A stretch of 10,905 bases of DNA from the IMG/VR virus record IMGVR_UViG_2874951433_000005. One strand, written 5' to 3'. Each line of letters opens with the position of its first letter. The first letter of the stretch is position 1. The DNA is from a virus. Taxonomy: Duplodnaviria; Heunggongvirae; Uroviricota; Caudoviricetes. Below the pieces are notes generated by a model that made no database searches, was not told where the DNA came from, and saw only the letters and a program-made list of their open reading frames with translations. Shown piece by piece: positions 1,226 through 10,905 of the stretch. Made by a program: the position numbers and the translations under genes.

Positions 1226-1786
1226 TTGTTGACCACTTCAGGTCAGGAGATTGTCGTCGAACCGATTGAACAGGCTATTCTCATCTCTGAGCAGACTAAG
1301 CTGTGGGACGCCAAGTCATCCACCGGATTCACTCAGGGCACACTTCAGCAGGACGCTATGAACATCTGTGAGAATGTGGTCCGTACCATCAACGCTCGCA
1401 TGGTCGACGTTCTGGAATCCTCTAAGCTGCTGAAGACCGTAGAGCTTCCTGTCCTGACTGGTAGCCTGACCGCTAAGGCAGACGCTATCATGGACGCTCT
1501 GTATGAGAACACCGAGCCTTCTTTCGGTTCTGAGGTGTCTGACTACGGTATTATCGCCCATGAGAGCCAGCTGAAAGCACTGTCCCGTCTGGCTGCTAAA
1601 CAGGGCTTCTCTGGTGAAGACGCTATCGTGGATATGCTGGGTACCGACATCGCGTATTACAACGGTGAGGACAAAGGTGTGTTCATGTTGGCTAAACGCT
1701 TCACGGCCCTGAGCTTCGGCTGCTTCCGTCACGACGGTGAGAATATTACGGTCGTCCTTTCACGTGATGGCGACTCTCAGTCCTGA
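1226..1786 (+). pseudogene. ORF fragment with strongly translation-optimised codon usage (phage structural / major-capsid-like, or another highly expressed gene), truncated at both ends
   Basis: The frame is open from the TAA at 1208-1210 with no ATG (the ORF track starts at a TTG). Codons are strongly biased (ctg, cgt, ggt, aac, gac, atc). The terminal TGA at 1784-1786 is the first three bases of the IS600 left inverted repeat, so the native 3' end is missing. Confidence 0.4.
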
Positions 1787-1847
1787 GGTAGCCTGAGTTT
1801 AACGGACACTCCTTCCTGAAATAGAATGGCATCAGAAGGAGCTAATA

Positions 1848-2126
1848 ATGAGCAGAAAAACCCAACGTTACTCTAAAGAGTTCAAAGCCGAAGCTGTCAG
1901 AACGGTTCTTGAAAATCAACTTTCAATCAGTGAAGGCGCTTCCCGATTATCCCTTCCTGAAGGCACTTTAGGACAATGGGTTACCGCCGCCAGAAAAGGG
2001 CTCGGTACTCCTGGTTCCCGCACGGTGGCTGAACTGGAATCTGAAATTCTGCAACTGCGTAAGGCGTTAAATGAAGCTCGCCTTGAGCGAGATATATTAA
2101 AGCGTATTTTGCACAGGAGTCGCTGA
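1848..2126 (+). CDS. IS600-like transposase OrfA, variant C-terminus (92 aa)
   Basis: MSRKTQRYSKEFKAEAVRTVLENQ... is an IS3-family OrfA with HTH. It ends ...DILKRILHRSR, whereas copy 2 ends ...DILKKATAYFAQESLKNTR, because of a 10-bp deletion at about 2100. Confidence 0.85.
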   Translation: MSRKTQRYSKEFKAEAVRTVLENQLSISEGASRLSLPEGTLGQWVTAARKGLGTPGSRTVAELESEILQLRKALNEARLERDILKRILHRSR

Positions 2127-2175
2127 AAAATACGCGTTAATCGAACAATGGCGACAACAATTTCCCATTGAAGCG

Positions 2176-2994
2176 ATGTGTCAGGTATTTGGTGTATCCA
2201 GGAGCGGTTATTACAACTGGGTACAGCATGAACCCTCAGACAGAAAACAAAGTGATGAGCGGCTAAAACCGGAGATTAAGGTGGCACATATCCGCACTCG
2301 CGAAACATATGGAACCCGGCGGCTCCAGACGGAGCTGGCAGAGAATGGCATCATCGTTGGTCGTGACCGACTGGCACGTCTTCGTAAGGAGCTGAGGCTA
2401 CGCTGTAAGCAGAAACGCAAGTTCAGAGCGACTACGAACCCGAACCACAATCTGCCAGTTGCGCCAAATCTGCTGAACCAGACGTTCGCTCCTACAGCAC
2501 CAAATCAGGTCTGGGTGGCGGACCTGACGTATGTTGCCACACAGGAGGGATGGTTGTACCTCGCTGGCATCAAAGATGTTTATACGTGCGAAATTGTCGG
2601 TTACGCCATGGGAGAGCGCATGACAAAAGAGCTGACAGGTAAAGCCCTGTTTATGGCGCTCAGGAGCCAGCGCCCACCTGCCGGGCTAATCCACCACTCT
2701 GATCGAGGTTCACAGTACTGCGCATACGATTACCGGGTCATACAGGAGCAGTCTGGTCTGAAAACATCAATGTCGCGTAAAGGTAACTGTTACGACAACG
2801 CTCCGATGGAAAGCTTCTGGGGAACGCTGAAAAATGAGAGCCTGAGCCACTATCGTTTTAATAACCGGGATGAAGCCATCTCAGTAATACGGGAATACAT
2901 TGAGATTTTCTACAATCGTCAGCGTCGTCACTCTCGTCTGGGGAATATCTCCCCGGCAGCCTTCAGGGAAAAATATCATCAGATAGCTGCTTAA
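2176..2994 (+). CDS. IS600-like transposase OrfB (DDE integrase domain), 272 aa from an internal ATG; it cannot be fused to OrfA by -1 frameshifting in this copy
   Basis: Near-identical to copy 2 OrfB (R versus W at one position). OrfB lies in the +1 frame relative to OrfA here, not the -1 frame seen in copy 2. Confidence 0.85.
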   Translation: MCQVFGVSRSGYYNWVQHEPSDRKQSDERLKPEIKVAHIRTRETYGTRRLQTELAENGIIVGRDRLARLRKELRLRCKQKRKFRATTNPNHNLPVAPNLLNQTFAPTAPNQVWVADLTYVATQEGWLYLAGIKDVYTCEIVGYAMGERMTKELTGKALFMALRSQRPPAGLIHHSDRGSQYCAYDYRVIQEQSGLKTSMSRKGNCYDNAPMESFWGTLKNESLSHYRFNNRDEAISVIREYIEIFYNRQRRHSRLGNISPAAFREKYHQIAA

Positions 2995-3256
2995 AAAAAG
3001 AACAAATGGTAGTGTCCGCTATTGCCAGTACACCTCACTGACATGCTAAAGCAAAAAATAGATGAATAAGTTGAGTTGTGCATATGTAGCCTGACCGTCA
3101 CAAAGTATATGGTGTCTGTACCAGTAAGATGATGGCCGGACTCTTTAAAAAAGAGCTGACCTGCACAATACAGGATGGACTTAGCAATGGCTGCTCCTGG
3201 CACAAAGCGGACAGTGATCACCGTTCTTACGACTACTTTCTGACTTCCTTCGTGAC

Positions 3257-3308
3257 TTGCCCTAAGCATGTTGTAGTGCGATACTTGTAATGACATTTGT
3301 AATTACAA
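3257..3308 (+). promoter_or_regulatory. relBE promoter and operator (relO-like): -35 TTGCCC, 17-bp spacer, -10 GATACT, overlapping TTGTAAT/ATTACAA repeats
   Basis: TTGCCC at 3257-3262, GATACT at 3280-3285, and TTGTAATGACATTTGTAATTACAAG at 3286-3308, immediately upstream of relB. Confidence 0.7.
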
Positions 3309-3320
3309 GAGGTGTAAGAC

Positions 3321-3560
3321 ATGGGTAGCATTAACCTGCGTATTGACGATGAACTTAAAGCGCGTTCTTACGCCGCGCTTGAAAAAATGGGTGTAACTCC
3401 TTCTGAAGCGCTTCGTCTCATGCTCGAGTATATCGCTGACAATGAACGCTTGCCGTTCAAACAGACACTCCTGAGTGATGAAGATGCTGAACTTGTGGAG
3501 ATAGTGAAAGAACGGCTTCGTAATCCTAAGCCAGTACGTGTGACGCTGGATGAACTCTGA
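3321..3560 (+). CDS. relB: RelB antitoxin (79 aa)
   Basis: MGSINLRIDDELKARSYA...RNPKPVRVTLDEL matches the E. coli Qin-prophage RelB from memory. Its TGA overlaps the relE ATG (TGATG). Confidence 0.95.
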   Translation: MGSINLRIDDELKARSYAALEKMGVTPSEALRLMLEYIADNERLPFKQTLLSDEDAELVEIVKERLRNPKPVRVTLDEL

Positions 3561-9398: not shown

Positions 9399-9479
9399 GT
9401 GAGCCAGTCAAATGGAAGGTATCGTTAAACTCACCGGTAGTGTCAGTGGGTCGTCTGAGACGCTTGCATGAGTTATCAG

Positions 9480-9510
9480 AGCCATCAGTAGTTAACTGGT
9501 GGCTTTTTTA
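9480..9510 (+). terminator. Intrinsic terminator immediately upstream of the holin gene
   Basis: 9-bp stem AGCCATCAG / CTGGTGGCT (one G-U pair) with loop TAGTTAA, followed by TTTTTTATT. Confidence 0.55.
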
Positions 9511-9544
9511 TTGTTGTCAGCTTCCGGATAACGGGAGACGGGGT

Positions 9545-9724
9545 ATGGACCAGATGGAAAAAATCACAACAGGTGTGTCATACACCACGTCAGCGGTGGG
9601 AACGGGCTACTGGTTCCTGCAGTTGCTGGACAGGGTTTCCCCGTCTCAGTGGGCGGCAATAGGCGTGCTGGGAAGTCTGCTGTTTGGGCTGCTGACATAT
9701 CTGACTGAGGTGTACTGGCAATAG
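9545..9724 (+). pseudogene. S21-type pinholin/antiholin gene (dual start M-D-Q-M), 3'-truncated by the IS600-like copy 2 insertion at 9705/9706
   Basis: [53 protein letters not shown] resembles the phage 21 S holin from memory. After ...LTYLT the frame runs into the IS and ends as TEVYWQ-stop, so the charged C-terminal tail is lost. Confidence 0.8.
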
Positions 9725-9748
9725 CGGACACTACCATTTGTTCTTTTT

Positions 9749-10567
9749 TTAAGCAGCTATCTGATGATATTTTTCCCTGAAGGCTGCCGGGGAGATATTC
9801 CCCAGACGAGAGTGACGACGCTGACGATTGTAGAAAATCTCAATGTATTCCCGTATTACTGAGATGGCTTCATCCCGGTTATTAAAACGATAGTGGCTCA
9901 GGCTCTCATTTTTCAGCGTTCCCCAGAAGCTTTCCATCGGAGCGTTGTCGTAACAGTTACCTTTACGCGACATTGATGTTTTCAGACCAGACTGCTCCTG
10001 TATGACCCGGTAATCGTATGCGCAGTACTGTGAACCTCGATCAGAGTGGTGGATTAGCCCGGCAGGTGGGCGCTGGCTCCTGAGCGCCATAAACAGGGCT
10101 TTACCTGTCAGCTCTTTTGTCATGCGCTCTCCCATGGCGTAGCCGACAATTTCGCACGTATAAACATCTTTGATGCCAGCGAGGTACAACCATCCCTCCT
10201 GTGTGGCAACATACGTCAGGTCCGCCACCCAGACCTGATTTGGTGCTGTAGGAGCGAACGTCTGGTTCAGCAGATTTGGCGCAACTGGCAGATTGTGGTT
10301 CGGGTTCGTAGTCGCTCTGAACTTGCGTTTCTGCTTACAGCGTAGCCTCAGCTCCTTACGAAGACGTGCCAGTCGGTCACGACCAACGATGATGCCATTC
10401 TCTGCCAGCTCCGTCTGGAGCCGCCGGGTTCCATATGTTTCGCGAGTGCGGATATGTGCCACCTTAATCTCCGGTTTTAGCCACTCATCACTTTGTTTTC
10501 TGTCTGAGGGTTCATGCTGTACCCAGTTGTAATAACCGCTCCTGGATACACCAAATACCTGACACAT
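9749..10567 (-). CDS. IS600-like transposase OrfB (272 aa from an internal ATG; normally made as an OrfAB fusion)
   Basis: DDE-type integrase core. Differs from copy 1 at one residue (W versus R in ...SDEWLKPEIK). Confidence 0.9.
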   Translation of the reverse strand: MCQVFGVSRSGYYNWVQHEPSDRKQSDEWLKPEIKVAHIRTRETYGTRRLQTELAENGIIVGRDRLARLRKELRLRCKQKRKFRATTNPNHNLPVAPNLLNQTFAPTAPNQVWVADLTYVATQEGWLYLAGIKDVYTCEIVGYAMGERMTKELTGKALFMALRSQRPPAGLIHHSDRGSQYCAYDYRVIQEQSGLKTSMSRKGNCYDNAPMESFWGTLKNESLSHYRFNNRDEAISVIREYIEIFYNRQRRHSRLGNISPAAFREKYHQIAA

Positions 10568-10602
10568 CGCTTCAATGGGAAATTGTTGTCGCCATTGTTC
10601 GA

Positions 10603-10905
10603 TTAACGCGTATTTTTCAGCGACTCCTGTGCAAAATACGCTGTTGCTTTTTTTAATATATCTCGCTCAAGGCGAGCTTCATTTAACGCCTTACGCAGTT
10701 GCAGAATTTCAGATTCCAGTTCAGCCACCGTGCGGGAACCAGGAGTACCGAGCCCTTTTCTGGCGGCGGTAACCCATTGTCCTAAAGTGCCTTCAGGAAG
10801 GAATAATCGGGAAGCGTCTTCACTGATCGAAAGTTGATTTTCAAGAACCGTTCTGACAGCTTCGGCTTTGAACTCTTTAGAGTAACGTCGGGTTTTTCTG
10901 CTCAT
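10603..10905 (-). CDS. IS600-like transposase OrfA (100 aa) with an intact frameshift window
   Basis: Ends ...DILKKATAYFAQESLKNTR. The minus-strand A-AAA-AAG motif lies at about 10647-10655. Three substitutions relative to copy 1 (Q6R, G30D, S35F). Confidence 0.9.
   Translation of the reverse strand: MSRKTRRYSKEFKAEAVRTVLENQLSISEDASRLFLPEGTLGQWVTAARKGLGTPGSRTVAELESEILQLRKALNEARLERDILKKATAYFAQESLKNTR

Follow-up and report, generated by a model that had tools for sequence, protein, structure and literature searches.

The stretch analysed here, referred to as the window, comprises 10,905 nucleotides entered as the virus record IMGVR_UViG_2874951433_000005 in IMG/VR, and its source is the chromosome of Shigella flexneri NCTC 9728 (CP026799.1, 4.511 Mb), tabulated as a serotype 5a(5b) strain (PMC9455713). 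The window carries two copies of the insertion sequence (IS) IS600 in opposite orientation, copy 1 on the plus strand at 1784-3037 and copy 2 on the minus strand from 9706 to the window end at 10905, which enclose 6668 bp of a Qin-type prophage remnant. The flanks of the two copies do not match, and this was probably brought about by recombination between IS600 copies resident in the region rather than by transposition of the pair, with a re-inversion of about 50 kb giving rise to copy 1. We examined about 26 kb of CP026799.1 around the window (contigs L014, L025 and L027) and compared it with further contigs designated by L-numbers, among them GCA_900457185.1 (L029), GCA_903995685.1 (L005), M90T (L028, CP037923.1) and Escherichia coli SW071611 (L003); statements on every or other S. 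flexneri cover the genomes compared here. Families were called with Pfam and PHROG, transfer RNAs (tRNAs) with ARAGORN, and IS600 identity was determined against RefSeq-annotated elements.

The inverted-repeat arms formed by the pair lie at 2101-3044/9699-10642 (944 nt, 99%) and 1848-2101/10652-10905 (254 nt, 98%), and a 10-bp indel offsets one arm pair from the other. Copy 1 starts at 1784 with its left inverted repeat (IRL), TGAGGTAG (TGAGGTAGCC...), and ends at 3037 with its right inverted repeat (IRR), ...ACACCTCA; the IRR of copy 2 is at 9706 and this element ends at 10969, 64 bp beyond the window. Both IRR/orfB ends point inward at the enclosed DNA, and the arms and ends thus confirm the preliminary description of this stretch, which had recognised two opposite-facing IS600-like copies with OrfB-proximal ends inward. 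Its reading of TCC and CTG beside copy 1 without duplication, and of a different inner flank of copy 2 (GAC), was found in the sequence as well. The fourth flank, which it had proposed to read past 10905, was taken from CP026799.1, where GGG precedes the IRL of copy 2, equal to CCC on the plus strand of the window past 10969. Along the plus strand the four flanks are therefore TCC and CTG around copy 1 and GAC and CCC around copy 2 (TCC/CTG and GGG/GTC in IS orientation). A target duplication of 3-4 bp was absent at both copies when these flanks were read directly, and none of the four flanks forms a reciprocal duplication of the inversion type (GGA inside copy 2, CAG outside), for which both 3 bp and 4 bp were checked. 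The missing duplication, attributed to later recombination, is no argument against the identity of the copies as IS600.

Over its 1264 bp the full-length copy shares 99.4% identity with elements annotated as 'IS3-like element IS600 family transposase'. Copy 2, intact at 1264 bp, agrees with canonical IS600 in length, termini, open reading frames (ORFs), frameshift site and identity. Its termini are imperfect TG...CA repeats, with IRL TGAGGTAGCCTGAG... and the reverse complement of IRR, TGAGGTGTACTGGC..., agreeing at 19 of the first 30 positions, and it encodes a 100-aa OrfA (HTH_Tnp_1) and a 272-aa OrfB (rve) in the 0 and -1 frames. At its A7G slippery site, TTAAAAAAAGC, the two are joined in the called product, a 385-aa OrfAB fusion with PF01527 and PF00665. 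Copy 1 departs from the canonical element by the loss of the slippery site, and both window copies do so by the want of a target duplication. Between copy 1 and copy 2 there are six substitutions, four of them within the first 168 nt, and copy 1 is without 10 bp (AAAAGCAACA) at IS600 nt 318-327 (window 2101-2102). The positions first given for the copies stand, and with this deletion copy 1 measures 1254 bp instead of 1264 bp. As the A7G frameshift site is deleted, copy 1 makes a 92-aa OrfA (1848-2126) and a separate 272-aa OrfB (2176-2994) and cannot make OrfAB, and is probably not autonomous, judging from its reading frames.

Apart from CP026799.1, the 92-aa OrfA variant was encountered in a single contig of 615 bp, from GCA_900488475.1. 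The 10-bp deletion sits 2-3 nt inside the break point at which IS1 cuts the sister copy in the closest relatives (IS1 followed by AAAAAAAGCAAC), and its position is the edge of homology between the two IS600 copies regarded below as parental. Its origin may lie in the crossover itself, as a side effect, or in an unrelated event at a hot spot rich in A. The IS beside rspA in sister genomes, with products of 92 aa or 382 aa, was considered as an IS600 with the 10-bp deletion and rejected, there being no IS600 match at that place. Apart from this, two IS600 elements at different loci of different strains (13383-14634 of L029 and 10559-11810 of L015) share a 12-bp deletion (AAAAAAAGAACA) immediately inside the IRR, which could represent recurrent slippage or gene conversion between copies.

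To the left, copy 1 cuts a gene fragment at 1238-1783 (plus strand), an internal part of a 329-aa hypothetical gene ended at 1783 by the IRL. This fragment is 95% identical to E. coli SW071611 (L003 8001-8546) and belongs to an island with an integrase gene by which ynfE is interrupted in some E. coli; searches of 1238-1783 against Pfam and PHROG gave no match. It had earlier been taken for a truncated phage gene, and this is not borne out, as it belongs to the hypothetical gene of the ynfE island. The ORF 1226-1786 was likewise considered as a phage capsid fragment and ruled out on the same grounds. The claim that each copy truncates a phage gene therefore holds for copy 2, which cuts a holin gene, and fails for the fragment at 1783/1784; on its inner side copy 1 cuts the prophage gene ydfV.

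Both junctions of copy 1 occur elsewhere on separate IS600 copies. The chimeric 186-aa ORF that spans the island/IRL junction is present in 24 contigs. In at least seven other genomes (L015-L018, L020, L022 and L023) the island IS600 is flanked by ...ctcagtcc and gtcccacgac..., and the empty target in E. coli reads ctcagtcc/cacgac, which identifies a simple insertion with a GTCC duplication; beyond that insertion follow the rest of the island, 'ynfE, ynfD, ynfC, speG, ynfB, ynfA and rspA. In 8401-type genomes the partner of the same island/IRL junction is mgtT with the mar region, and in the window its partner is ydfV'. On the side of the prophage segment, one of the flanking IS600 copies in the other S. 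flexneri examined is cut by IS1 and joined to fimH(ydeQ)-ydeP-safA-ydeO, the IS1 junction lying at IS600 nt ~341 except in the serotype-5 cluster, where it is at nt ~316. The 5' single nucleotide polymorphisms (SNPs) of copy 1 (agagcca) follow the pattern of an island copy (agggcca, L020), unlike the ydfJ-linked type (gggatca). The junctions together with these 5' SNPs indicate that copy 1 is a recombinant, with its IRL half from the island IS600 and its IRR half from the ydfV'-adjacent IS600; there are few informative SNP sites in copy 1, and the crossover point is only roughly placed.

The IRL of copy 2 abuts ydfJ', 267 bp inside the ydfJ of E. coli that is already truncated by the prophage. 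As the E. coli order across this gap is holin...tail-pinQ-ydfK-ydfJ'-ydfI, copy 2 is, by comparison of gene order, the mark of a collinear deletion that extends from holin codon 54 through the lysis, head and tail genes, pinQ and ydfK into ydfJ. The junctions of this deletion are identical in every S. flexneri genome examined, and the deletion is hence old. Homologous recombination of two parental copies since lost and an adjacent deletion by the transposase are both possible origins, and the junctions fit either of them.

The inner junctions of the enclosed segment, at which IRR is followed by ctgacatgct (ydfV') or gtcagatatg (holin'), are identical in every genome compared, and two arrangements of the outer junctions were found (about 9 assemblies of type A and 16 of type B, counted from the contigs read). 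In type A (L006-L008, L029 and the source) the ydfJ/IRL junction lies on the holin'-side copy, and in type B (L004, L009-L012 and M90T, L028) it lies on the ydfV'-side copy with the IS1-truncated copy beside holin'. The isomers thus re-assort the same junction sequences, as homologous inversion between inverted IS copies requires. Inversion isomers, for which the preliminary description had suggested a search, are accordingly present among S. flexneri strains as identical junctions in both orientations of their assemblies. The further idea that the segment is inverted against its immediate neighbours in this genome was not upheld, since its order ynfE...ydfV'...holin'...ydfJ matches that of E. 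coli.

Over the 6668-bp segment the source is identical to L029 (0 SNPs, both type A), and M90T and L009, each one SNP from the source, are type B; between cluster X, of type B, and cluster Y, of the opposite orientation (type A), there are 9 SNPs. When SNPs are compared with orientation, no tree in which the serotype-5 cluster stays undivided can do with fewer than two flips. That the segment is a recurrently and fast-flipping invertible element in S. flexneri is nonetheless quite doubtful. If it were, the isomers could coexist in culture, provided that flipping is fast enough, and the expression of neighbours (ydfJ', fimH-ydeP and relBE/Q read-through) might change, or the flipping segment might serve as a centre of recombination through which the 50-kb block around it is inverted again and again, and the 10-bp deletion at the IS600/IS1 homology edge could be a scar of crossover resolution.

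The gene order in the source is ynfG-ynfF-ynfE'-(island remnant, IS629 and IS66 debris)-island gene'-IS600-ydfV'...holin'-IS600-ydfJ'-ydfI-ydfZ-ydfH-ydfG-dcp. That of E. coli is ynfF-ynfE-ynfD-ynfC-speG-ynfB-ynfA-rspA-rspB, followed by the prophage (int...ydfV relBE...holin...tail) and ydfK-ydfJ'-ydfI...dcp, so that the source is collinear with it and lacks material at each IS600. Over about 60 kb the region has no fewer than four IS600 copies, situated near ydeI/mgtT, at ydfJ/holin, at ydfV and in the ynfE island. In the type A genome CP026792.1 the island IS600 (~2,495,863-2,497,126, plus strand) and the truncated IS600delta at ydfV' (~2,548,642-2,549,565, minus strand) are inverted with respect to each other and about 52 kb apart. 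The closest relative, L029, differs from the source by 4 mismatches and one 12-bp indel in 14.7 kb and has the order ydeO-safA-ydeP-fimH-IS1-IS600delta-ydfV'...holin'-IS600-ydfJ'...dcp.

In the history that we propose for copy 1, the parental state would have held the island IS600 and the IS1-truncated ydfV' IS600 in inverted orientation about 52 kb apart. One crossover in their common ~0.93 kb would invert the interval and yield ynfF-ynfE'-island'-IS600(full length)-ydfV'...holin'-IS600-ydfJ'-ydfI...dcp, by which the E. coli-like orientation of the segment would be restored. The reciprocal product would be ydeP-fimH-IS1-IS600delta-island'-'ynfE...speG...rspA, with a predicted junction at which IRR is followed by gtcccacgac (GTCCCACGACTTGG; GTCCCACGAC) and which reads ACACCTCAGTCCCACGACTTGG across IRR and island'. 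From the comparison of assemblies we infer an inversion, and not a deletion, as the event, host homologous recombination as its agent, and the order of events as given.

Several points weigh against this history. The reciprocal junction is predicted about 50 kb away, outside the ~26 kb of CP026799.1 examined, and the closest relatives have chromosomes of 4.59-4.60 Mb, which exceed CP026799.1 by about 80 kb; some material has thus been lost from the latter, and a deletion here is possible. The orientation of the parental copies is taken from CP026792.1, which belongs to another S. flexneri cluster and not to serotype 5, and the orientations in general rest on public assemblies, in which short-read or reference-guided assembly can place 6.7 kb between inverted repeats of 1.26 kb in the wrong orientation. 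Besides, a plain crossover leaves the 10-bp deletion at the homology edge unexplained, and both RecA-type recombination and the transposase are compatible with the sequence data as makers of the crossover.

As the window is strictly collinear with E. coli (contigs L003, L002 and L037 in succession), where the two junctions of copy 1 are in direct orientation and about 15.5 kb apart, copy 1 could be viewed as the product of a deletion, in which direct IS600 copies in the ynfE island and ydfV excised about 15 kb from an E. coli-like order with loss of the rest of the island, the 5' part of ynfE, ynfD, ynfC, speG, ynfB, ynfA, rspAB and early Qin. The smaller size of the source chromosome (~80 kb against its nearest relatives) agrees with this, as does the loss of speG, a known pathoadaptive outcome in Shigella, in which IS-driven erosion of this nearby locus has been described (PMC3213128). 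However, in other S. flexneri, including relatives 0-1 SNP away, the ydfV' copy is IS1-truncated and attached to fimH-ydeP and the central block has the orientation opposite to that in E. coli; island copy and ydfV' copy form an inverted pair there, so a crossover between them inverts instead of deleting. A deletion starting from type B would place IS1-fimH-ydeP beside holin' and not the observed ydfJ'...dcp, and a frameshifted speG is kept by most S. flexneri, 8401 and M90T of serotype 5 among them. Since a single deletion yields the observed flanks only from a never-inverted ancestor, it conflicts with the IS1-truncated junction of close relatives, and copy 1 as the scar of a 15-kb deletion that removed speG was downgraded to an unlikely explanation. 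The IS600 transposase, acting through intramolecular transposition or an IS dimer or junction, could have taken the place of host homologous recombination in these rearrangements, as IS3-family elements form reactive IRR-IRL junctions, the endpoints of the copy 2 deletion fall exactly at the IS ends, and a genome with two parental direct copies was not found among those compared. Inversion by the transposase is expected to leave an inverted duplication pair, but the reverse complement of TCC is not GAC and that of CTG is not CCC; the junctions of copy 1 pre-exist on separate copies, and the isomers re-assort unchanged junctions, as results from a crossover in the body of the IS, which makes the transposase a decidedly unlikely agent.

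The preliminary description had preferred an IS-mediated rearrangement to two simple insertions, which is retained here, and had offered a composite-transposon-like unit as one form of it, which is not. The pair does share the inverted-arm geometry of the composite transposons Tn10 and Tn5, with IRL ends pointing outward around a discrete segment, invariant inner junctions and outer flanks that vary between ydfJ, IS1-fimH, the island, ydeS/R and ydaU. In contrast to Tn10 and Tn5, there is no outer duplication, either in the source (TCC vs CCC) or in L005 (AAG vs AAT), the arm formed by copy 1 is defective in lacking the frameshift site, and ydfJ and ynfE are the native E. coli neighbours of the prophage in native order and orientation. 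All contexts but one ydaU junction fall in a single neighbourhood (ydeP-ydeS, ydfJ and ynfE), and each alternative outer junction is also found on another IS600 copy in sister genomes, as fits recombination; movement of IS600-segment-IS600 as a block is thus scarcely credible. Differences in arrangement could also have been introduced by assembly at the 1.26-kb repeats, which are longer than short reads, and an older M90T assembly (CM001474.1) that mirrors 8401 and an odd join in contig L030 point in this direction. Yet both orientations recur in many independent complete assemblies (the two sets counted above), orientation tracks SNP clusters X and Y, and the private 10-bp deletion and 5' SNPs of copy 1 tie its halves in one molecule, the deleted OrfA being present in a second assembly; we consider artefacts to be a very improbable source of these differences.

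Recombination between resident IS600 copies, preferred here for copy 1, belongs to a class of events already known in this organism. Six inversions were reported between Sf8401 and Sf301, among which one was described as 'probably mediated by IS600' (PMC1550401, Nie et al. 2006), and high rates of parallel (homoplasic) inversions have been found in Shigella (Seferbekova et al. 2021, PMC8072062). Together with Hawkey et al. 2020 (PMC7373316), these studies describe IS-bounded inversions, translocations and deletions in S. flexneri, thus the same organism and mechanism class, and also report re-inversions that restore collinearity, as proposed here. They differ in working at a scale of at least 5 kb without these junction sequences, and neither the 6.7-kb IS600-bracketed segment nor the NCTC 9728 junction was found described in the cited Shigella rearrangement literature. 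The case is a well-resolved local instance of known Shigella biology, with no new element or mechanism. It gives a clean example of how IS copies without target duplications bear witness to earlier IS-IS recombination, and it marks the ydeP-ydfJ-ynfE region of S. flexneri as a multi-IS600 hot spot from which strain-specific inversions arise. This may be of use in aligning S. flexneri assemblies, in judging mis-assemblies at IS600 and in employing structural variants as lineage markers.

Further IS600 copies of the region were seen in other arrangements. In L005, which differs by 20-25 SNPs per 6.7 kb, the inner junctions are the same and the IS600 copies lie at 2330-3593 and 10260-11523; the ydfV'-side copy is full length with its IRL against ydeS/ydeR, and the holin'-side copy abuts ydaU (Rac-type). 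This suggests that the ydfV'-adjacent copy is the endpoint of an older IS600-mediated inversion from ydeRS to ydfV, with further rearrangement in L005. Another IS600 lies between ydeI and mgtT, at the place where dgcZ would be (L012 from 19274 onward; L021 and L024 from 11822 onward). In 8401-type genomes the IRR/mgtT junction of this ydeI/mgtT copy is paired with the island/IRL junction, as would fit a further inversion between IS600 copies, distinct from the others and spanning the block from mar to ynfE; it may be the 'IS600 inversion' of Sf8401.

The segment between the two copies is, by its gene content, a decayed lambdoid prophage of the Qin type with normal internal order. At its left end ydfV' (3038-3296, minus strand) retains the first 86 of 101 codons and is cut by the IRR of copy 1, the called ORF (2991-3296) entering the IS. 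It is followed on the plus strand by the Qin toxin-antitoxin genes relB (3321-3560, PF04221), relE (3560-3847, PF05016) and hokD (3919-4074, PF01848), and ydfV-relB-relE-hokD is 99.9% identical to Qin of E. coli K-12. Next on the plus strand are rem, a hypothetical gene, ydfU/DUF968, rusA and the Q antiterminator gene (4292-7145), collinear with the prophage of E. coli 1EC213. Downstream of Q, ARAGORN placed tRNA-Met(cat) and tRNA-Arg(tct) at 7289-7364 and 7466-7542 (plus strand), the first of which is annotated as tRNA-Ile in the E. coli record. An iraM-like anti-adapter gene of the PmrD family, called from annotation and PF11183, lies at 8454-8789 on the minus strand. At the right end the class II holin' (9545-9705, plus strand) retains 53 of 71 codons and matches Phage_holin_2_1 (PF04971, E = 1.2e-23); the IRR of copy 2 truncates it at 9705/9706, as had been described, and a chimeric called ORF covers the holin'/IS600 junction at 9545-9724.

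The stretch of hokD, rem, ydfU, rusA, Q, the two tRNAs, the iraM-like gene, DUF1737 and the holin gene is 98.4% identical to and collinear with the intact 1EC213 prophage. Qin of K-12 and its intact relatives have the same ydfV-relBE-hokD-rem-ydfU-(rusA)-Q-...-holin order and the same ydfJ/rspB site. In contrast to Qin, the remnant lacks both of its ends, with the int-dicB-flxA side missing at copy 1 and the late genes together with the attR side missing at copy 2, and its ydfU and Q genes are frameshifted. The expectation that related genomes without the IS copies might show the same gene order was realised for this interior (E. coli 1EC213 and K-12); the interior is hence unrearranged, which says nothing in favour of simple IS insertions. 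ydfU/DUF968 is split into 245 aa and 110 aa (window 4890-5940) and Q into 6324-6791 and 6819-7145 (155 aa and 108 aa). These two frameshifts, along with a 124-aa RusA, are common only to the serotype-5 cluster (M90T CP037923.1, L029 and L009) and, being restricted to it, serve as lineage markers of prophage decay.

Outside the IS600 pair, the window begins with the left end of an IS629/IS1203-like element of the IS3 family (1-381, minus strand) with its orfA at 1-327 (108 aa). It is followed by a chimeric 224-aa HTH ORF (401-1075, minus strand), in which an HTH_23 N-terminus is joined to an IS66-type TnpA domain (PF01527 and PF13384); the exact variant was found in one contig, that of CP026799.1 only, and it was this ORF by which the source of the window was recognised. 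In the short-read contig L030 (Logan ERR127042_312, 1693/1694), a join connects window position ~7199, shortly past Q, to the 3' end of ydfI with 100% identity to the source on both sides, skipping the tRNAs, the iraM-like gene, holin', copy 2 and ydfJ'. The two readings of this join are a mis-assembly and an additional deletion of 6.2 kb that a related isolate has undergone.

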